A stretch of 64,000 bases of DNA from Escherichia phage teqhad. Where the stretch lies: sequence record NC_054933.1; one strand, 5' to 3'. The notes under the pieces were generated by a model. The model had not been told where the DNA came from and did no database searches. It saw only the letters and a program-made list of their open reading frames with translations. Every line of letters starts with the position of its first letter. Position 1 is the first letter of the stretch. Below, in pieces: positions 3,612 through 58,400 of the stretch. A program made the position numbers and the translations under genes.

Positions 3612-4298
3612 TTAAAAATCGTGGGTAGAATCAGCTTCAAGAGCTACTACATAATTCGCATGTTCACCTTCAAATTTAGCAGCACCTTGTTTACCTTTTG
3701 CCCAGAGCAGAAGTTTATAATTTCCTGGTTGCATTTTCATATTTGCCATATTGATAATGAAATTAAATGTATTTTCACCATCATAATCACCAAGAGTCAA
3801 AGAATATTTAACACGGGTCAGAGCAGAATCTTCTACTTTATTAAAACCGTTAATTACGATTTTACCTTCTTTTACCGTGATAGCAATTGTATCAATTTGC
3901 AGACCACGAGATACACGCAACAGCTGTTGAAGGTCTTCAGCTTTAATTTCAGTAACAACAGATGCTACCGGGAATGGAATTGGTTTATTAGGAGCAACTA
4001 CTGTACTCGGATCGGCTGCTGGCCAAAAAATTGTTGAACGAGCATCAGCAATTTTAATATTTCCATCTTCTGACTGGGAAATTTCTGCATCATCATTAAC
4101 TAGAGACAGAATACCGAGAAAACCGTTCAAATCGTAAATTGCTACATCAAAATCAATAGTGTCAGAAATATTTGCTTCCGCATAAGTTGTACCATTAACT
4201 GCACGAGTCATAATAAATTGACCTGATTTAAGCATAATACCAGAGTTAATAGTAGCGAAATTTTTAAGCAGAGCAGTAGTATCTTTAGACAGTTTCAT
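3612..4298 (-). CDS. 45: DNA polymerase sliding clamp
   Basis: 228 aa, MKLSKDTTALLKNFATINSGIMLKSGQFIMTRAVNGTTYAEANISD... recognised as gp45. Confidence 0.95.
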   Translation of the reverse strand: MKLSKDTTALLKNFATINSGIMLKSGQFIMTRAVNGTTYAEANISDTIDFDVAIYDLNGFLGILSLVNDDAEISQSEDGNIKIADARSTIFWPAADPSTVVAPNKPIPFPVASVVTEIKAEDLQQLLRVSRGLQIDTIAITVKEGKIVINGFNKVEDSALTRVKYSLTLGDYDGENTFNFIINMANMKMQPGNYKLLLWAKGKQGAAKFEGEHANYVVALEADSTHDF

Positions 4299-4954: not shown

Positions 4955-4962
4955 TATAAATA
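4955..4962 (+). promoter_or_regulatory. late promoter TATAAATA (plus strand)
   Basis: Exact TATAAATA 34 bp upstream of the plus-strand HNH gene; AAGGA SD at 4986-4990. Confidence 0.55.
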
Positions 4963-4995: not shown

Positions 4996-5712
4996 ATGAA
5001 TTATAAACTAATTTATGAAAAGTTAATCTCTAATGCTAAATCTCGAAAACTTGATTGCTATACTGAATCTCATCACATTATACCACGCTGTTTAAATGGC
5101 AGCGATGATGCTTCAAACTTAGTAGAGTTAACACCAGAAGAGCACTATGTAGCTCATCAACTTTTAGTAAAAATTTATCCTTCTGAACCAAAATTAGTCT
5201 ATGCTGCTAACATGATGACAGTTTCCACGAAATACGCTAAACGCAACAATAAAACTTTCGGTTGGATTCGTCGTAAACTCTGGGAAATAGAAAAGAACAA
5301 AGAATTCTCCCAGGAGACACGAAAGAAAATGTCTGATGCAGTAGCTAATAAAGCAAGACTAACTTGTCCTCATTGCGGTAAGTCTGGATTAAGCGGGAAT
5401 ATGAATCGTTGGCATTTTGATAACTGCCCAAATCACCCTAATCCTAAAGTTAGACCACCAATGTCTAAAGAACACAGAAATAATATCTCAAACGGACTTA
5501 AAGCAATCGTTCTTGAAGAAACATCCTGCGAATTCTGCGGAATGATAGGCAAGAAATGCGTTATCGCAGCGCATAGAAATTTCTGCAAGAAAAATCCAAA
5601 TGGACGCAAGAAAACTGAAAAGACTGGTACTTGCGTCCATTGTGGTAAAGTTACCACTTTCGGAAATTTATCAAGATGGCATAATGATAACTGTAAATAT
5701 AAACCTAGCTAA
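4996..5712 (+). CDS. HNH homing endonuclease with C-terminal zinc-finger-like repeats
   Basis: 238 aa; HNH core HHIIPRCLNGSDDASNLVELTPEEHYVAH; repeated CxHCGK...RWHxDNC motifs; antisense to all flanking genes. Confidence 0.85.
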   Translation: MNYKLIYEKLISNAKSRKLDCYTESHHIIPRCLNGSDDASNLVELTPEEHYVAHQLLVKIYPSEPKLVYAANMMTVSTKYAKRNNKTFGWIRRKLWEIEKNKEFSQETRKKMSDAVANKARLTCPHCGKSGLSGNMNRWHFDNCPNHPNPKVRPPMSKEHRNNISNGLKAIVLEETSCEFCGMIGKKCVIAAHRNFCKKNPNGRKKTEKTGTCVHCGKVTTFGNLSRWHNDNCKYKPS

Positions 5713-11571: not shown

Positions 11572-11790
11572 TTATTTCTCTAATATAAAATAAAAATCAT
11601 CATCTGTTAAATGATACCTGTAATTTAATTCTACACCATTAGATTTAAAAGCGGTATCATACGGATTTTCTGGATCAATATCAATGTCAAGAGCTAAAAC
11701 TTCCCTGAGATACATTTTAAGTAAATAGGGAATAGCTTCAACTTCAGGTATTTCTTCCAAGAATCCGGAGAGGTTAATCGTTAGCCTCAT
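11572..11790 (-). CDS. hypothetical small early protein
   Basis: 72-aa ORF immediately downstream of gene 55. Confidence 0.5.
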
Positions 11791-12331
11791 ATAAAAAATC
11801 CAAACTAGGAGAATCGTCTACAACACTTTTCTTTTCAGCCCCCGGTGTTCTATAGGTTGATTCTTCGTAATGCGTCATTTTATCGTAGATGTCTTGAATA
11901 AAAGTTTCATCTACTAACGCAACCATATCGTCGTCACGACTGTCATAGACATTGTGAACGAAGTAACTATATTTCTTTGCAACTTCCTTACGTTCTTTTT
12001 TAATACGCTGGACGAATGCATTAAAACAAGCTTGAGTTATATATGCATGTGGGTTTTTATATTTCGTTTCATCAAAATTATGAAGCCCCTTAATAGAAGC
12101 TTCTATACCATCTGCAATCATTTCTTGTTTCCAAGACTGGGTGTATCCTGAAAAGTTGAAACGTTTAGATAAGCCTTCTGCAATAAGCATAATGGCTAAT
12201 CCGATAGTATCATTCTGACGAACTACTTTATTTGGGTCTTTATTATTTGCTAATTCTGTTTTCCAATCAATAATAGCTTGTAAAAGCTCTTTATTGTTTA
12301 CGTAATTATATTTAGGCTTAGTTTCTGACAT
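11774..12331 (-). CDS. 55: late-transcription sigma factor gp55
   Basis: 185 aa from [23 protein letters not shown]; ATG at 12331-12329 preceded by GAGGUG; track start is an upstream GTG. Confidence 0.9.
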
Positions 12332-38019: not shown

Positions 38020-38988
<969 letters not shown>

Positions 38989-48309: not shown

Positions 48310-48358
48310 GTGTTTCTCCTCAAATTTAATTAAGATTATAACACACAAAACTGAAGCA

Positions 48359-48889: not shown

Positions 48890-48995
48890 ATATTCCTCAT
48901 AATGCTTTATAACTGTTGGTGGTATAATGGGTCTAAGTCTCTTCCATTCAATTCCATTTAGAACAAACAACAGAAAAGAATGGAAGATAATAGAA

Positions 48996-49820
48996 TTAGA
49001 TATTTGACCAGACTTTGTTTGCAGAGAAACGTTTTCCTTTTGAAACGAACTGTTGAAGTGGCATCAACACAACGTTCGCCCAGTCTTTCGGGGCGATTTC
49101 AACAAGGCTACCCATAATATTACCGGGTATATATGCCTTAATCATTTGGTCTGCACCCCTAAATCCTTTCACTTGACTCCAATCAATTTTTAATTTCGTT
49201 TTATTAGTAATAGTAGGTGTATTTGCATATTGCTTTAAAAGCTCTTCTAGAAATTGCTGACGAGCTTTAGGTGGAATATAGTGCAAGTTCAATCCGTACA
49301 TTAAATTATGCTTACCTAAACCAAGGTAAATTATCAAAGGAAATTTATCCCAGTAAGGAAGAGTTTCCTTGTGTTTAGCATCATAAGCAAAAGCATATAT
49401 TCGTCCCGGCTGCGGGCGAACAACTTTATGTCCTTTTACTTGCTTAATAGTTTCAGCAAACCACTTTCTGGTTTTATTATTAATTGCTGCACCTTCATTA
49501 CGAATTTTATCACGCAATGTTTGCCTGAATGAATTTATCATAAGCAGTTGTCTTTCTTGCTTATTGAGTTTATTCATTGGTTTTGATTCAAGCTTTTGAA
49601 TCTTTTCAGCTGTTTTAATTCCTGAAGCATATTTTGACATTGCCGAAGTAAACGTAGAGTATTTGATTCCTCTTTCTTCAGCAAATTGCTTTCCTGTCAT
49701 TCCTTTTGCTTTGGCCTTTTTGTATTCAAGACCTATCTGAATCCATTTCTTTTCGTTTAATGATTGCTTAACCTTTGGAACTTGGGGAGTGCTTTCATTA
49801 ATTATTTGAAAAATAGCCAT
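48996..49820 (-). CDS. 2: DNA end-protector protein
   Basis: 274 aa; synteny. Confidence 0.75.
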
Positions 49821-50272
49821 TATGCCCCCTTAAAGCCAAGAGCTCGTAATCCATCTTCTGTTAGAATTCTAAATTTTATTCCACGCTTTTCAGCTAAAGC
49901 TTGCGCTGCTTTCCATTTATCAGTATTAACGGAATATGTATAAATTTCATTCATAAATCTTTTCTTCGCTGCAGTTGTTAGATGTGCTGGTTTAACTGGT
50001 GGTTGTGTTTCTTTTTTAGGTTTTATTTCAATAAAAAATTCTTGTCCAGAAGAATCTTTCATCCAAATATCCATGAAGTATCTACGTTTTTTCCCTTCTG
50101 CATTACAAAAATAAGGAATTACTGCTGTTTCACTACCCCATGCAATAATTTCTGGATTTTTATCTAACCATTCAAAAAAGAATTTTTCCCAATTTGATCT
50201 ATACGTAATTTTTTTAGGGTCACCTCTATATTTTGATATATTTTTAGGAACCCATTTTCCAGAATATGCCAT
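49820..50272 (-). CDS. 4: head completion protein
   Basis: 150 aa; synteny. Confidence 0.75.
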
Positions 50273-50283
50273 TGGATTCTCCT

Positions 50284-50291
50284 TATAAATA
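50284..50291 (+). promoter_or_regulatory. late promoter TATAAATA for gene 53
   Basis: Plus-strand TATAAATA 29 bp upstream of the gene 53 ATG. Confidence 0.55.
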
Positions 50292-50298
50292 GATAATA

Positions 50299-50306
50299 TA
50301 TTTATA
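50299..50306 (-). promoter_or_regulatory. late promoter TATAAATA for gene 4 (divergent)
   Basis: Minus-strand TATAAATA 27 bp upstream of the gene 4 ATG. Confidence 0.5.
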
Positions 50307-50319
50307 AACAGGAGGGCCC

Positions 50320-50910
50320 ATGCTCTTTACATTTTTTGATCCGATTGAATATGCGGCCAAAACGGTGAATAAAAACGCGCCGACTATTCCTATGACAGAT
50401 ATTTTTAGAAACTATAAAGACTATTTCAAACGTGCTCTTGCGGGATACCGCTTACGTACTTATTATATTAAAGGTTCACCACGCCCGGAAGAATTAGCAA
50501 ATACTATATATGGAAATCCACAGTTGTATTGGGTTTTATTGATGTGTAATGATAATTATGACCCGTATTATGGATGGATTACTTCGCAAGAAGCTGCTTA
50601 TCAAGCATCTATACAAAAATACAAAAACGTAGGTGGAGACCAAATAGTATATCATGTAAATGAGAACGGTGAAAAATTTTATAATTTAATATCATACGAT
50701 GATAATCCATATGTTTGGTATGACAAAGGTGATAAAGCTAGAAAATATCCTCAATATGAAGGAGCACTTGCTGCGGTCGATACGTATGAAGCTGCTGTTC
50801 TTGAAAATGAAAAACTTCGTCAAATAAAAATAATAGCAAAATCAGACATTAATTCATTTATGAACGACCTTATACGTATAATGGAGAAATCTTATGGAAA
50901 TGATAAGTAA
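50320..50910 (+). CDS. 53: baseplate wedge protein gp53
   Basis: 196 aa; synteny upstream of gene 5. Confidence 0.8.
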   Translation: MLFTFFDPIEYAAKTVNKNAPTIPMTDIFRNYKDYFKRALAGYRLRTYYIKGSPRPEELANTIYGNPQLYWVLLMCNDNYDPYYGWITSQEAAYQASIQKYKNVGGDQIVYHVNENGEKFYNLISYDDNPYVWYDKGDKARKYPQYEGALAAVDTYEAAVLENEKLRQIKIIAKSDINSFMNDLIRIMEKSYGNDK

Positions 50911-52621
50911 TAACCTTAATTGGTTTGTTGGTGTTGTTGAAGATAGAATGGACCCATTAAAATTAGGTCGTGTTCGTGTTCGTGTTGTTGGTCTGCATCC
51001 ACCTCAAAGAGCACAAGGTGATGTAATGGGTATTCCAACTGAAAAATTACCATGGATGTCAGTTATTCAACCTATAACTTCTGCAGCAATGTCTGGAATT
51101 GGAGGCTCCGTTACTGGACCGGTAGAAGGAACTAGAGTTTATGGTCATTTTTTGGACAAATGGAAAACTAACGGAATTGTCCTTGGCACGTATGGTGGAA
51201 TAGTTCGCGAAAAGCCTAATAGACTTGAAGGATTTTCTGACCCAACTGGACAGTATCCTAGACGTCTAGGAAATGATACTAACGTATTAAACCAAGGCGG
51301 AGAAGTAGGATATGATTCGTCTTCTAATATTATCCAAGATAGTAATCTAGACACTGCAATAAATCCCGATGATAGACCACTATCAGAAATTCCAACTGAT
51401 GATAATCCAAATATGTCAATGGCTGAAATGCTTCGCCGTGATGAAGGATTAAGACTAAAAGTTTATTGGGATACCGAAGGATATCCGACAATTGGTATTG
51501 GTCATCTTATCATGAAGCAGCCAGTTCGTGATATGGCTCAAATTAATAAAGTTTTATCAAAACAAGTTGGTCGTGAAATTACTGGAAACCCAGGTTCTAT
51601 TACAATGGAAGAAGCGACGACTTTATTTGAGCGTGATTTGGCTGATATGCAACGTGACATTAAATCACATTCTAAAGTAGGACCAGTCTGGCAAGCTGTC
51701 AACCGTTCTCGTCAAATGGCATTAGAAAATATGGCATTTCAGATGGGTGTTGGCGGTGTAGCTAAATTTAACACAATGTTAACTGCCATGTTAGCAGGAG
51801 ATTGGGAAAAAGCATATAAAGCCGGTCGTGATTCATTGTGGTATCAACAAACAAAAGGCCGTGCATCCCGTGTTACCATGATTATTCTTACGGGGAATTT
51901 GGAATCATATGGTGTTGAAGTGAAAACTCCAGCTAGGTCTTTATCGGCAATGGCTGCGACTGTAGCTAAATCTTCTGACCCTGCTGACCCTCCTATTCCA
52001 AATGACTCGAGAATTTTATTCAAAGAACCAGTTTCTTCATATAAAGGCGAATATCCTTATGTGCATACAATGGAAACTGAAAGCGGACATATTCAGGAAT
52101 TTGATGATACCCCTGGGCAAGAACGATACAGATTAGTTCATCCAACTGGAACTTATGAAGAAGTATCACCGTCAGGAAGAAGAACAAGAAAAACTGTTGA
52201 TAATTTGTATGATATAACCAACGCTGATGGTAATTTTTTGGTAGCCGGTGATAAAAAGACTAACGTCGGTGGATCAGAAATTTATTACAACATGGATAAT
52301 CGTCTTCACCAAATAGATGGAAGCAATACGATATTTGTTCGAGGCGATGAAACTAAGACGGTTGAAGGTAATGGAACTATCCTAGTTAAAGGTAATGTTA
52401 CTATTGTAGTTGAAGGTAATGCTGACATTACAGTTAAAGGAGATGCTACCACTTTAGTTGAAGGAAATCAGACTAATACAGTAAATGGAAATCTTTCTTG
52501 GAAAGTTGCTGGGACAGTTGATTGGGACGTTGGTGGTGATTGGACAGAAAAAATGGCATCTATGAGTTCTATTTCATCTGGTCAATACACAATTGATGGA
52601 TCGAGGATTGACATTGGCTAA
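50894..52621 (+). CDS. 5: baseplate hub / tail-associated lysozyme gp5
   Basis: 575 aa; internal lysozyme domain MAEMLRRDEGLRLKVYWDTEGYPTIGIGHLI; C-terminal beta-helix repeats VKGNVTIVVEGNADITVKGDATTLVEGN. Confidence 0.93.
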   Translation: MEMISNNLNWFVGVVEDRMDPLKLGRVRVRVVGLHPPQRAQGDVMGIPTEKLPWMSVIQPITSAAMSGIGGSVTGPVEGTRVYGHFLDKWKTNGIVLGTYGGIVREKPNRLEGFSDPTGQYPRRLGNDTNVLNQGGEVGYDSSSNIIQDSNLDTAINPDDRPLSEIPTDDNPNMSMAEMLRRDEGLRLKVYWDTEGYPTIGIGHLIMKQPVRDMAQINKVLSKQVGREITGNPGSITMEEATTLFERDLADMQRDIKSHSKVGPVWQAVNRSRQMALENMAFQMGVGGVAKFNTMLTAMLAGDWEKAYKAGRDSLWYQQTKGRASRVTMIILTGNLESYGVEVKTPARSLSAMAATVAKSSDPADPPIPNDSRILFKEPVSSYKGEYPYVHTMETESGHIQEFDDTPGQERYRLVHPTGTYEEVSPSGRRTRKTVDNLYDITNADGNFLVAGDKKTNVGGSEIYYNMDNRLHQIDGSNTIFVRGDETKTVEGNGTILVKGNVTIVVEGNADITVKGDATTLVEGNQTNTVNGNLSWKVAGTVDWDVGGDWTEKMASMSSISSGQYTIDGSRIDIG

Positions 52622-52655
52622 TATACTTCCAATGAGCGCTGATTTAGGAGAATCC

Positions 52656-53150
52656 ATGGAAGGTTCTTCTATCGACGTCACCTTTACCGCTCAATTAGAA
52701 ACAGGTGAAACGTTAGTATCTATAAATATAACTAGTTACGAAGAAACTCCTGGGGTTTTAGTAGAAGAAAATCGCTTATATGGAACATATGAATCTGTAT
52801 TTGGTTTCGGAAATGATGCGTTGAAATATCGTTTAGGCGATGAATTTAAAACTGCTGCTTCATGGGAAGAACTTCCTACTGATTCTGATACTCAGCTGTA
52901 TTTGTGGAAAGCTCCTCAAAATCTCCAGAAGACATTCACTTACGAAGTAACATTAATATATGACTACCAAGAACAAAGTGAATCTGGAGGTTCTGGCAGT
53001 AATTCTAGGTCATCTTCTGATACTACTGAACCGACAGATCCTCCTGCTCCAGTAAGAAAAACTCTCGTTAAAAATTATACTAAAACTATAGTTGGAAATT
53101 GGAGTCGTTGGGCTAATAAATTGAGAAGCTATGTGTATGAGAGGCCATAA
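52656..53150 (+). CDS. 5.1: gp5.1-like protein (start chosen at the AGGAG-preceded ATG)
   Basis: Track ORF begins at 52593 inside gene 5; ATG at 52656 has SD AGGAG. Confidence 0.5.
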
Positions 53151-53444
53151 ATGTCAGGATTAAGTTATGATAAGTGTGTTACTGCTGGCCATGAAGCGTG
53201 GCCTCCAACAGTTGTGAATGCTACACAAAGTAAAGTATTCACTGGAGGAATTGCTGTTCTCGTAGCAGGTGATCCAATTACAGAACATACAGAAATTAAA
53301 AAGCCATATGAAACACATGGCGGAGTGACACAACCCAGAACTTCTAAGGTATATGTCACTGGAAAGAAAGCTGTTCAAATGGCTGATCCAATATCATGCG
53401 GTGATACTGTGGCTCAGGCATCATCTAAAGTATTCATTAAATAG
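53151..53444 (+). CDS. 5.4: PAAR-like baseplate spike tip protein gp5.4
   Basis: 97 aa; position between 5.1 and 6. Confidence 0.7.
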
Positions 53445-53452
53445 GATTTAAA

Positions 53453-55435
53453 ATGGCAAATACCCCTGTAAATTATCAATTAACAAGAACAGCAAATGCT
53501 ATTCCCGAGATATTCGTCGGGGGTACGTTTGCTGAAATAAAACAAAACCTCATTGAATGGCTTAATGGCCAAAATGAATTTTTGGATTATGATTTTGAAG
53601 GCTCAAGATTAAACGTTCTGTGTGACCTTTTAGCTTATAATACATTATACATTCAGCAGTTTGGTAATGCTGCTGTGTATGAAAGCTTTATGCGTACTGC
53701 TAACTTACGAAGTTCAGTTGTTCAAGCTGCACAAGATAACGGATATTTACCTACTTCAAAATCCGCTGCGCAGACCGAAATTATGTTAACATGCACTGAC
53801 GCATTGAATAGGAATTACATTACTATTCCTCGCGGAACTCGCTTTTTAGCATATGCAAAAGATACTTCTGTTAATCCATATAACTTCGTTTCTACCGAAG
53901 ATGTTATTGCTATTCGTGATAAAAATAACCAATATTTTCCACGTTTAAAATTGGCCCAGGGACGTATAGTAAGAACTGAAATCATTTATGATAAATTAAC
54001 ACCTATTATCATTTATGACAAAAATATAGATAGAAACCAGGTTAAATTATATGTTGATGGAGCGGAATGGATTAACTGGACGAGAAAGTCAATGGTTCAT
54101 GCTGGTTCAACATCAACGATTTACTATATGCGTGAAACTATTGATGGAAACACTGAATTCTATTTTGGCGAAGGTGAAATTTCTGTTAATGCTTCTGAAG
54201 GAGCTTTGACCGCTAATTATATCGGAGGTCTTAAACCTACTCAGAACTCTACGATTGTTATTGAGTACATCAGTACTAATGGTGCTGACGCGAACGGAGC
54301 AGTCGGATTTTCATACGCAGATACATTAACAAATATAACTGTCATCAATATTAATGAAAATCCAAACGATGACCCAGATTTTGTTGGGGCAGATGGTGGT
54401 GGTGATCCGGAAGATATTGAGCGTATTCGCGAATTGGGTACTATTAAACGCGAAACCCAGCAACGCTGCGTAACTGCAACTGATTATGATACATTCGTTT
54501 CAGAGAGATTTGGTTCTATTATTCAAGCAGTTCAGACTTTCACTGATTCTACTAAACCTGGTTATGCATTTATTGCTGCTAAACCTAAATCAGGTCTGTA
54601 TTTAACTACCGTACAGCGCGAAGATATTAAAAATTATCTCAAAGACTATAATTTAGCTCCTATTACGCCATCAATTATTTCTCCTAATTATCTTTTTATT
54701 AAGACTAATTTAAAAGTCACATATGCTTTAAATAAACTGCAAGAATCCGAGCAGTGGCTTGAAGGTCAAATAATTGATAAAATTGATCGCTATTATACCG
54801 AAGATGTAGAAATTTTTAACTCGTCTTTTGCCAAGTCTAAGATGTTGACATATGTAGATGATGCAGATCATTCTGTCATTGGTTCATCAGCGACTATTCA
54901 AATGGTTCGTGAAGTACAAAACTTCTATAAAACGCCTGAAGCAGGTATTAAATACAATAATCAAATAAAAGATCGTTCTATGGAATCTAATACGTTTTCA
55001 TTTAATTCTGGACGAAAGGTTGTAAATCCTGATACTGGTTTAGAAGAAGATGTATTATATGACGTTCGTATAGTATCAACAGACCGAGATTCTAAAGGAA
55101 TTGGTAAAGTTATTATTGGTCCATTTGCTTCTGGCGATGTTACAGAAAATGAAAACATTCAGCCGTATACAGGCAACGATTTTAACAAATTAGCAAATTC
55201 TGATGGACGCGACAAATACTATGTTATCGGTGAAATAAATTATCCGGCTGACATGATTTATTGGAATATCGCTAAAATTAATTTAACATCTGAAAAATTT
55301 GAAGTTCAGACTATTGAATTATATTCTGATCCAACCGATGATGTTATCTTTACTCGCGATGGTTCACTGATTGTATTTGAAAATGACTTACGTCCACAAT
55401 ACTTAACTATCGATTTGGAGCCTATATCACAATGA
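53453..55435 (+). CDS. 6: baseplate wedge protein gp6
   Basis: 660 aa, same length and position as T4 gp6. Confidence 0.85.
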   Translation: MANTPVNYQLTRTANAIPEIFVGGTFAEIKQNLIEWLNGQNEFLDYDFEGSRLNVLCDLLAYNTLYIQQFGNAAVYESFMRTANLRSSVVQAAQDNGYLPTSKSAAQTEIMLTCTDALNRNYITIPRGTRFLAYAKDTSVNPYNFVSTEDVIAIRDKNNQYFPRLKLAQGRIVRTEIIYDKLTPIIIYDKNIDRNQVKLYVDGAEWINWTRKSMVHAGSTSTIYYMRETIDGNTEFYFGEGEISVNASEGALTANYIGGLKPTQNSTIVIEYISTNGADANGAVGFSYADTLTNITVININENPNDDPDFVGADGGGDPEDIERIRELGTIKRETQQRCVTATDYDTFVSERFGSIIQAVQTFTDSTKPGYAFIAAKPKSGLYLTTVQREDIKNYLKDYNLAPITPSIISPNYLFIKTNLKVTYALNKLQESEQWLEGQIIDKIDRYYTEDVEIFNSSFAKSKMLTYVDDADHSVIGSSATIQMVREVQNFYKTPEAGIKYNNQIKDRSMESNTFSFNSGRKVVNPDTGLEEDVLYDVRIVSTDRDSKGIGKVIIGPFASGDVTENENIQPYTGNDFNKLANSDGRDKYYVIGEINYPADMIYWNIAKINLTSEKFEVQTIELYSDPTDDVIFTRDGSLIVFENDLRPQYLTIDLEPISQ

Positions 55436-58400
55436 CAGTAAAAGCACCTTCAGTCACTAGTCTCAGAATTTCCAAGTTATCCGCAAATCAGGTGCAAGTA
55501 CGCTGGGATGACGTTGGTGCTAATTTCTACTATTTTGTAGAAATCGCTGAGACAAAAACAAACTCGGGGGAAAAACTCCCGAGTAATCAATATCGTTGGA
55601 TTAATTTAGGATATACAGCAAATAATAGTTTCTTTTTTGACGATGCTGATCCATTAACAACATACATTATTAGAGTAGCCACAGCTGCGCAAGATTTTGA
55701 GCAGTCTGATTGGATTTATACCGAAGAGTTTGAAACTTTTGCTACAAATGCTTATACATTTCAAAACATGATTGAAATGCAATTAGCCAATAAATTCATT
55801 CAGGAAAAATTTACTCTTAATAATTCTGATTATGTTAATTTTAATAATGATACTATAATGGCTGCATTGATGAATGAATCATTCCAATTCAGCCCATCGT
55901 ATGTTGATGTTTCATCAATAAGTAATTTTATTATTGGTGAAAATGAGTATCATGAAATACAAGGTTCTATTCAGCAAGTATGTAAGGATATTAACCGAGT
56001 TTATTTGATGGAATCAGAAGGAATTCTATATCTTTTTGAGCGCTATCAACCTGTAGTTAAAGTATCCAATGATAAAGGACAAACCTGGAAAGCTGTAAAG
56101 CTCTTCAATGACCGTGTAGGATATCCTTTATCTAAGACAGTATATTACCAATCTGCGAACACAACATACGTTCTAGGATACGACAAGATTTTCTATGGCC
56201 GCAAATCTACTGATGTTAGATGGTCAGCTGATGATGTCAGATTTAGTTCGCAAGATATAACATTTGCTAAACTTGGTGACCAATTACATCTAGGATTTGA
56301 TGTAGAAATTTTTGCCACTTACGCGACTTTACCAGCGAATGTATACCGCATTGCAGAAGCTATTACTTGTACAGATGATTACATTTACGTTGTCGCCAGA
56401 GACAAAGTTAGATACATAAAAACGAGTAATGCACCTATAGATTCTGATCCATTATCTCCAACATATTCGGAAAGACTTTTTGAACCCGATACAATGACTA
56501 TAACTGGAAATCCTAAAGCAGTATGCTATAAAATGGATTCTATCGGTGATAAAGTTTTTGCGCTTATTATTGGTGAAGTTGAAACATTAAATGCTAATCC
56601 TAGAACATCAAAAATAATTGATTCCGCTGATAAAGGAATATATGTTTTAAATCATGACGAAAAGACATGGAAAAGAGTTTTCGGTAATACCGAAGAAGAA
56701 AGAAGACGTATTCAACCCGGATATGCGAATATGTCAACTGATGGTAAATTAGTTTCTCTGTCTTCGAGTAATTTTAAATTTTTAAGTGATAATGTTGTTA
56801 ATGACCCTGAAACTGTGGTGAAATATCAGTTAATCGGTGCTGTTAAATATGAATTTCCTCGTGAATGGTTAACTGATAAGCATTATCATATGATGGCATT
56901 TATAGCGGATGAAACATCTGATTGGGAGACTTTTACTCCTCAACCAATGAAATACTACGCAGAACCATTCTTTAACTGGTCTAAAAAATCTAACACACGT
57001 TGTTGGATAAACAACTCTGATAGAGCTGTAGTAGTTTATGCTGATTTAAAATACACCAAAGTTATAGAAAATATTCCAGAAACATCACCAGATAGATTAG
57101 TTCATGAATACTGGGATGATGGTGATTGCACTATAGTAATGCCAAATGTTAAATTCACTGGATTTAAAAAATATGCGTCTGGGATGCTTTTCTATAAAGC
57201 CTCCGGCGAAATAATTTCTTACTATGATTTTAACTATCGTGTGAGAGATACAGTAGAAATTATTTGGAAGCCAACTGAAGTATTTTTAAAAGCATTTTTA
57301 CAAAACCAAGAGCACGAGACTCCTTGGTCACCAGAAGAAGAGCGTGGATTAGCTGACCCCGATTTAAGACCATTAATTGGAACAATGATGCCTGATTCTT
57401 ATTTGTTACAGGATTCGAATTTTGAAGCATTTTGCGAAGCATATATTCAGTATCTTTCTGATGGGTATGGAACTCAGTATAACAATTTACGAAATTTAAT
57501 TCGTAATCAGTATCCTAGAGAAGAGCATGCATGGGAATATTTGTGGTCAGAGATATATAAAAGAAACATTTATTTAAATGCTGATAAACGTGATGCTGTT
57601 GCGAGATTCTTTGAATCACGTAGCTATGATTTTTATTCTACTAAAGGAATTGAAGCATCATACAAGTTTCTTTTTAAAGTTCTTTATAATGAAGAAGTTG
57701 AAATTGAAATTGAATCTGGGGCTGGTACTGAATATGATATAATCGTTCAATCTGATTCTTTGACTGAAGATTTAGTAGGACAAACGATTTATACAGCCAC
57801 AGGAAGATGTAATGTTACTTATATAGAAAGAAGCTATTCTAATGGTAAATTGCAATGGACCGTAACTATTCATAATCTTTTGGGAAGATTAATTGCTGGT
57901 CAAGAAGTTAAAGCAGAAAGACTCCCTAGTTTTGAAGGCGAAATTATTCGTGGCGTTAAAGGAAAGGATTTGCTTCAAAACAATATAGACTATATTAATA
58001 GAAGTAGATCATACTATGTAATGAAAATTAAATCCAATTTACCTTCTTCTCGTTGGAAATCTGACGTTATTCGTTTTGTTCATCCAGTAGGATTTGGATT
58101 TATAGCAATTACTCTTTTAACGATGTTTATTAATGTTGGTTTAACTCTTAAACATACAGAGACTATAATTAATAAATACAAAAACTATAAATGGGATTCT
58201 GGATTGCCTACTGAATATGCCGATAGAGTAGCTAAATTGACTCCAACTGGTGAAATTGAGCATGATTCAGTAACAGGCGAAGCAATTTATGAGCCTGGCC
58301 CAATGGCTGGTGTAGAATATCCTCTTCCTGATGACTATAATGCTGAAAATAATAATTCAATATTTCAAGGTCAATTGCCGTCTGAACGACGTAAATTAAT

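Follow-up and report, generated by a model that had tools for sequence, protein, structure and literature searches.

The 47-bp intergenic region between gene 4 and gene 53 of Escherichia phage teqhad most probably (about 0.88 by our estimate) contains two separate gp55-dependent late promoters of the T4 type, situated on opposite strands in a crossed arrangement that would render their use mutually exclusive. It occupies positions 50273-50319 of the DNA analysed here, namely a stretch of 64,000 nucleotides from sequence record NC_054933.1 (hereafter the window, to which all coordinates refer). The feature is already known, being the described late-promoter pair of T4 genes 4 and 53, carried unchanged in a Tequatrovirus. 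The modest point beyond the textbook lies in its geometry, with late promoters interleaved so tightly that competition for the same melted DNA would follow.

Architecture of the intergenic region

The gap, with the sequence TGGATTCTCCTTATAAATAGATAATATATTTATAAACAGGAGGGCCC, was delimited from the open reading frame (ORF) map and the sequence by the gene 4 start codon at 50270-50272 on the minus strand and the gene 53 ATG at 50320, in exact agreement with the 47 bp given in an earlier note on this DNA. Perfect matches to the late-promoter box TATAAATA were returned by a motif scan exactly where that note had placed them, at 50284-50291 on the plus strand and at 50299-50306 on the minus strand (reading TATTTATA on the plus strand). 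The former is assigned to gene 53 and the baseplate genes, transcribed rightward, and the latter to genes 4 and 2, transcribed leftward. Between them lies a 7-bp spacer, GATAATA (50292-50298), of which six positions are A or T. The plus-strand box is abutted by the AGGAG Shine-Dalgarno (SD) sequence of gene 4 (50279-50283, minus strand), located 6 nt from its ATG and represented by a GGAG-type motif at the same place in relatives, while the AGGAGG SD of gene 53 (50310-50315, plus strand) stands 4 nt before its own ATG.

According to the published rule, TATAAATA occupies positions -13 to -6 of a late promoter (PMC1524935), which places the predicted starts at about 50297 (plus) and 50293 (minus), some 4 bp apart and both inside the spacer. 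The predicted leaders would thus measure approximately 23 nt for gene 53, including AGGAGG, and 21 nt for gene 4, including AGGAG, and each box would fall at about +3 to +10 of the opposite transcription unit. From this geometry, the spacer is predicted to be the melting region common to both promoters. The distance from the end of the box to its own ATG is 28 nt for gene 53 and 26 nt for gene 4, and it ranges from 24 to 36 nt for the other well-placed boxes of the window. The plus-strand box is the one nearer to gene 4 and the minus-strand box the one nearer to gene 53, which makes the promoters crossed and overlapping. The earlier description of back-to-back elements on opposite strands is hence right as to the strands and has to be amended as to the arrangement, the predicted starts being only about 4 bp apart.

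Flanking genes and strand polarity

Gene 4 (49820-50272, minus strand) encodes a head completion or head closure protein of 150 aa (PHROG 218, head closure, E = 1.8e-62) that is 98.7% identical to T4 gp4, and its position matches that of T4 gene 4. Gene 53 (50320-50910, plus strand) encodes a baseplate wedge subunit of 196 aa (PHROG 232, E = 1e-73), in accordance with the T4 annotation. The former opens the leftward late unit 4-2(-3) and the latter the rightward baseplate block starting with 53-5, with the next genes outward matching PHROG families for the DNA end protector (gene 2) and the baseplate hub/lysozyme (gene 5). Both gene names had been proposed from the sequence beforehand and were confirmed by the PHROG matches (head closure, baseplate wedge subunit) and by a layout identical to that of T4.

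In the same vein, the gap had been regarded as the polarity switch of the window, a view that holds for the major switch: on the ORF map, genes run on the minus strand up to 50272 and on the plus strand thereafter, and the sign of the GC skew is reversed near 50 kb. It does not hold for a sole switch, as a plus-strand gene at 4996-5712 is the one exception on the map. The strand switch near oriE, together with its shift in base composition, has been described previously (PMC3016281). The 4-53 gap may serve as an anchor for annotation: the leftward 4-2 late unit and the baseplate block running rightward both begin there, and the main change of coding strand, near oriE, falls at this point.

Further leftward, the 106-nt gap between genes 2 and 3 (48890-48995, minus strand) contains no exact late box, the nearest sequence being TATAAAGC; transcription of gene 3 may thus be owed to a variant box or to polymerases reading through from the promoter of gene 4.

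Counterparts in T4, T6 and RB69

A 1151-bp query over the site matched 655 phage records, nearly all of them Tequatrovirus, with up to 99.7% identity, and an 87-bp alignment across the gap was 100% identical in the window, T4 and T6. In T4, gene 4 (76885-77337, minus strand) and gene 53 (77385-77975, plus strand) are likewise separated by a 47-bp gap (77338-77384). The starts predicted for the window fall at 77362 (plus) and 77358 (minus) in T4 coordinates. The element, its flanking genes and the gap are therefore the same as for the late promoters that precede genes 4 and 53 in T4, without any difference in the gap itself, the neighbouring genes alone being slightly different (gp4 at 98.7%, as above); owing to this identity, what is known of T4 at the 4-53 site holds for the window. 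The GenBank records of T4 (AF158101 and NC_000866) carry no annotated promoter features, and direct 5'-end mapping of the gene 4 and gene 53 promoters was not found in the accessible literature, full-text searches included.

A comparable pair was predicted in RB69 by Nolan et al. in 2006, who listed the late promoters Pl:80613 (plus strand, 80613-80655) and Pl:80684 (minus strand, 80642-80684) in Additional File 5 of their work (PMC1524935). This pair coincides with the 4-53 gap of RB69 (80627-80687), where, as in the window, both strands carry boxes in crossed order. The RB69-type gap differs from that of the window in its length of 61 bp, its longer gene 53 leader, its TTG start and its diverged flanks. 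Similar overlapping pairs of plus- and minus-strand late promoters were listed elsewhere in RB69, RB49, RB43, and Aeh1 (PMC1524935).

Assignment to the late-promoter class

A T4 late promoter is defined by TATAAATA at -13 to -6, roughly a helical turn ahead of the start, by the lack of a -35 element and by an A/T-rich segment downstream (PMC1524935, PMC2988020). Late transcripts of T4 are produced in either polarity, and 50 late-promoter sites have been catalogued, with the caution from the same review that activity in vivo has not been proven for all 50 (PMC2988020). The gap displays perfect boxes, no conserved -35 element and an A/T-rich spacer downstream, with each box placed before a co-oriented late gene, and promoter scans of the gap revealed neither a sigma-70-like two-hexamer site nor a middle-promoter pattern with a MotA box. 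Time-resolved RNA sequencing and proteomics assigned T4 genes 3, 4, 53, 5, and 5.1 to the late class at the RNA as well as the protein level, and gene 2, unlike genes 4 and 3, to the class "middle RNA, late protein" (PMC9697503, supplements). Two of the trans-acting factors are encoded within the window: the late sigma factor that recognises TATAAATA (gene 55, 11774-12331, minus strand; PHROG 234, E = 2.9e-69) and the sliding clamp (gene 45, 3612-4298, minus strand; PHROG 223, DNA polymerase processivity factor, E = 5.5e-86), the latter being the gp45 clamp that activates late transcription (PMC2988020, PMC7892883). Gene 33 lies outside the window. The earlier proposal that both units are driven by late promoters thus appears well supported by box spacing, by conservation across genera and by the late class of T4 genes 4 and 53.

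The mere occurrence of a box carries little weight in a genome of 35% G+C. The window holds 12 exact TATAAATA sites against 11.2 expected, a number reached in 42 of 100 shuffles, and 220 sites with one mismatch against 222.7 expected; as the motif is not enriched in this A/T-rich genome, a single box is weak evidence on its own. The raw count is uninformative, and only placement is informative. In seven of the 12 exact sites, the end of the box falls 15-45 nt upstream of the start of a co-oriented ORF, a class that makes up 2.9% of positions (binomial P = 1.3e-8) and into which 8-mers of the same composition fall 6.7% of the time. Moreover, a box on each strand was obtained in just 7.5e-5 of 200,000 mononucleotide shuffles of the 47-mer.

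The middle-promoter pattern of MotA (TGCTTNA-N10-14-TANNNT) was observed 23 times in the window against 7.6 expected. The minus strand carries eighteen of the 23, in keeping with early and middle transcription running in a single direction in T4, and one of the patterns is found at 48335-48358, upstream of gene 1.

Conservation among relatives

Gene 4 neighbourhoods were gathered from 14 annotated phages and from 80 IMG/VR contigs, the latter identified by gp4 alignment. In 58 of the 80 contigs, gene 53 is situated upstream of gene 4 in divergent orientation. Pooling the cases of direct adjacency with the window gives 38 distinct 4-53 gaps. Both boxes are present in 30 of these, amid poorly conserved flanks, in the form [T/A]ATAAATA toward gene 53 (TATAAATA or AATAAATA) and as a perfect TATAAATA toward gene 4. 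The 2-bit value of the box positions is partly built in, the gaps having been selected on box presence, and the flanking positions reach at most about 1.3 bits, a value that on the upstream side stems from the complement of the neighbouring SD.

The order is crossed in 28 of the 30 two-box gaps, with a spacer of 4-15 bp (mode 7). The other two (contigs L041 and L043) display overlapping boxes in reversed order, TATTTATAAATA, in which each box is still positioned 27-28 nt from its own start codon. Over all 30 gaps, 25-42 nt separate the box from the start codon of gene 53, and 25-38 nt separate its counterpart from that of gene 4. Each box is therefore tied to its own gene and the distance between the boxes is free, as befits two promoters, which argues against a single palindromic operator.

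With a gp4 that shares 62-88% identity with that of the window, Mosigvirus, Moonvirus, Dhakavirus, Lazarusvirus (Acinetobacter), Bragavirus (Proteus), and Klebsiella phages possess both boxes, and the crossed layout is kept in Tequatrovirus and all of these named genera, among others. Such tight interleaving, kept across genera, makes the site a small, naturally occurring system in which promoter competition could be studied, along with the strand polarity of transcription under clamp activation. RB49-like gaps combine TATAAATA with GATAAATA, and RB43-like gaps show only a CTAAATA-type box, on one strand; the pair is hence not universal.

Proposed mechanism and alternatives

In the mechanism proposed here, one promoter would serve gene 53 and the baseplate genes rightward and the other genes 4 and 2 leftward, each consisting of an 8-bp TATAAATA box alone without a -35 element. 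Host RNA polymerase carrying the phage proteins gp55 and gp33 would open the A/T-rich DNA just past the box, with activation by the DNA-loaded gp45 clamp from the upstream side. The late polymerase complex is reported to span both sides of the start, the DNA upstream being occupied by gp33 and by the ring-shaped clamp gp45 (PMC2988020, PMC7892883). Both open complexes would need the same stretch of about 9 melted base pairs (50291-50299), so that they could not coexist on one DNA molecule and each copy would be transcribed in one direction at any moment.

This reading is founded on the sequence itself, its identity in T4 and T6, the conservation of the boxes and of their distances to the ATG, the late class of the genes in T4, and the occurrence of genes 55 and 45 in the window. 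The exact starts, the mutual exclusion, and any part played by clamp orientation in the choice of direction are what we infer from it. A more elaborate version can be conceived, in which the crossed mirror layout acts as a two-state switch whose setting, head-completion or baseplate mRNA, is picked by the orientation of gp45, itself set by the strand bearing the nick or primer end, and in which pairing between SD and anti-SD silences any RNA crossing the gap. We hold this version to be improbable.

The silencing of read-through RNA deserves consideration as an added layer that is compatible with the two-promoter reading. Read from end to end, the gap shows mirror symmetry (SD complement, box, spacer, box, SD), and an RNA spanning it is consequently predicted to fold into a hairpin in which the SD is paired with the SD complement of the other gene. 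With both late starts inside the loop, the late RNAs would lack the 5' arm and escape the fold, and only these internally started RNAs would be translated. The predicted fold of the full-gap RNA, with the SD paired, amounts to -13.6 kcal/mol (z = -2.7) in the plus sense and -12.3 kcal/mol (z = -2.0) in the minus sense, the same fold is predicted in all 28 crossed gaps, and a mechanism of this type has been documented at T4 genes e, soc, 49, and I-TevI (PMC3014915). The likeness to T4 gene e is evident in that its TATAAATA boxes are positioned just before the ribosome site within a potential hairpin, the late transcripts being devoid of the 5' arm (PMC3014915). However, early read-through and the inhibitory structure were demonstrated experimentally for gene e, whereas the fold at genes 4 and 53 is predicted and its pairing displays no co-evolution.

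Several results speak against such silencing at the gap. The native flanks formed a duplex of -9.11 kcal/mol compared with -8.90 kcal/mol for chimeric flanks, and 5887 of 20,000 permutations were at least as good (P about 0.29). With the native flanks no better than chimeras, the pairing is what any two mirrored SD-plus-box units would give, and a selected SD-sequestering hairpin was rejected on the negative outcome of this chimera and permutation test, the arms not being complementary beyond the SDs and boxes. In addition, T4 gene 4 RNA is late with no sign of early read-through (PMC9697503), no MotA-type promoter was identified in the approximately 1 kb upstream on the minus strand, nor on that strand across 49,000-56,000, and gene 4 is absent from the listed examples (PMC3014915). 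Early repEB/repEA units do sit upstream of gene 4 in the T4 annotation. On these grounds, the hairpin is probably a by-product of two mirrored SD-plus-box units, and its use by the phage is unlikely.

Three observations adjoin this subject. A 45-aa ORF on the minus strand (50916-51053), antisense to the start of gene 5, matches T4 repEB, an early oriE gene, in position, and its transcript would run toward the 4-53 gap. A second hairpin, over the SD and ATG of gene 53 (50311-50328), was flagged by a terminator scan and discarded, its fold of -6.6 kcal/mol (z = 0.06) being like that of shuffles. The gene e of the window itself (lysozyme, 164 aa, ORF 38020-38514) is preceded by tandem TATAAATA boxes 13 bp apart, at 38528 and 38541 (38528-38548, minus strand), in agreement with the pair of late promoters reported for gene e of T4 (PMC3014915).

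Less probable still is the notion that just one box works, the other being a passive mirror image or a chance match whose gene is started elsewhere. The frequency of TATAAATA by chance in this genome would be in its favour, as would the incomplete proof in vivo for the catalogued T4 late sites (PMC2988020) and the RB43-like phages, in which a recognisable box seems to occur on one strand only. Such an account is at odds with the independent conservation of the boxes, each maintained across genera at a steady distance from its own start codon even in the gaps with swapped order. It also fails to provide another start, in that no other promoter pattern was detected upstream of gene 4 or gene 53, because the DNA preceding either gene is its neighbour read in antisense, and both genes are late in T4.

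The 9-bp perfect inverted arms of TTATAAATA-N7-TATTTATAA and the low-affinity binding of T4 DsbA reported at A/T-rich sites overlapping two late promoters might suggest a palindrome acting as a dimer operator, cruciform, or bidirectional terminator, yet this is scarcely credible. The spacing of the arms in relatives ranges from 4 to 15 bp, and there the arms may even overlap with their order reversed, a variation at odds with a dimer operator. Conservation follows the 8-bp late consensus and not the longer palindrome, no U-run follows the hairpin, and neither late transcript contains both arms. The DNA hairpin has little stability (-3.3 kcal/mol, z = -1.5), for which reason a DNA cruciform was rejected.

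Comparison with sigma-70 bidirectional promoters

Bidirectional promoters of the sigma-70 class were described by Warman et al. in 2021, as cited in PMC10268837, as having one pseudo-symmetric -10 hexamer between starts that are usually 18 bp apart (range 7-25), and binding in one direction is stated in PMC12825309 to exclude the other. As far as these accounts extend, the likeness to the two late promoters of the gap resides in short, A/T-rich, near-symmetric DNA, divergent transcription, and the same logic of competition. In contrast, the gap comprises two separate 8-bp gp55 boxes lying outside the interval between the starts, for which a separation of some 4 bp is predicted (-4 to +7 in relatives). 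A bidirectional promoter of the sigma-70 type, with one shared -10 element and starts 7-25 bp apart, was therefore rejected for the gap; only the TATTTATAAATA variant of L041 and L043 resembles that layout.

Variant junctions and mobile genes

In more distantly related phages, namely Vibrio phage K575 (L010), Aeromonas phage AsFcp_2 (L014), and Salmonella phage Maynard (L015), the divergent junction at gene 4 is kept with gene 48 (baseplate tail tube cap) in place of gene 53. The gaps of these three phages contain CTAAATA-type boxes, which in AsFcp_2 form an abutting palindrome (TATTTAG directly followed by CTAAATA). Vibrio, Angelvirus, Kuttervirus, cyanophage, and RB43-like phages were set aside as evidence, as their gene 48 partner or CTAAATA-type boxes represent other layouts with no bearing on the element described here.

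In five IMG/VR loci (L027, L028, L030, L083, and L087), the crossed pair is separated from gene 4 by an insertion of 608-731 bp (at about positions 270-1000 of each locus) and still adjoins gene 53. A start codon follows the late box and SD of the gene 4 side in four of the five, and these signals thus appear to be used by the inserted sequence. L083 was the only locus in which an ORF bearing the HNH endonuclease motif was recognised.

The lone plus-strand gene within the minus-strand block of the window (4996-5712) encodes a homing endonuclease of 238 aa (PHROG 655, E = 1e-68). A TATAAATA box at 4955-4962 on the plus strand is located 33 nt ahead of its ATG, and the gene looks like a mobile gene carrying its own late promoter.
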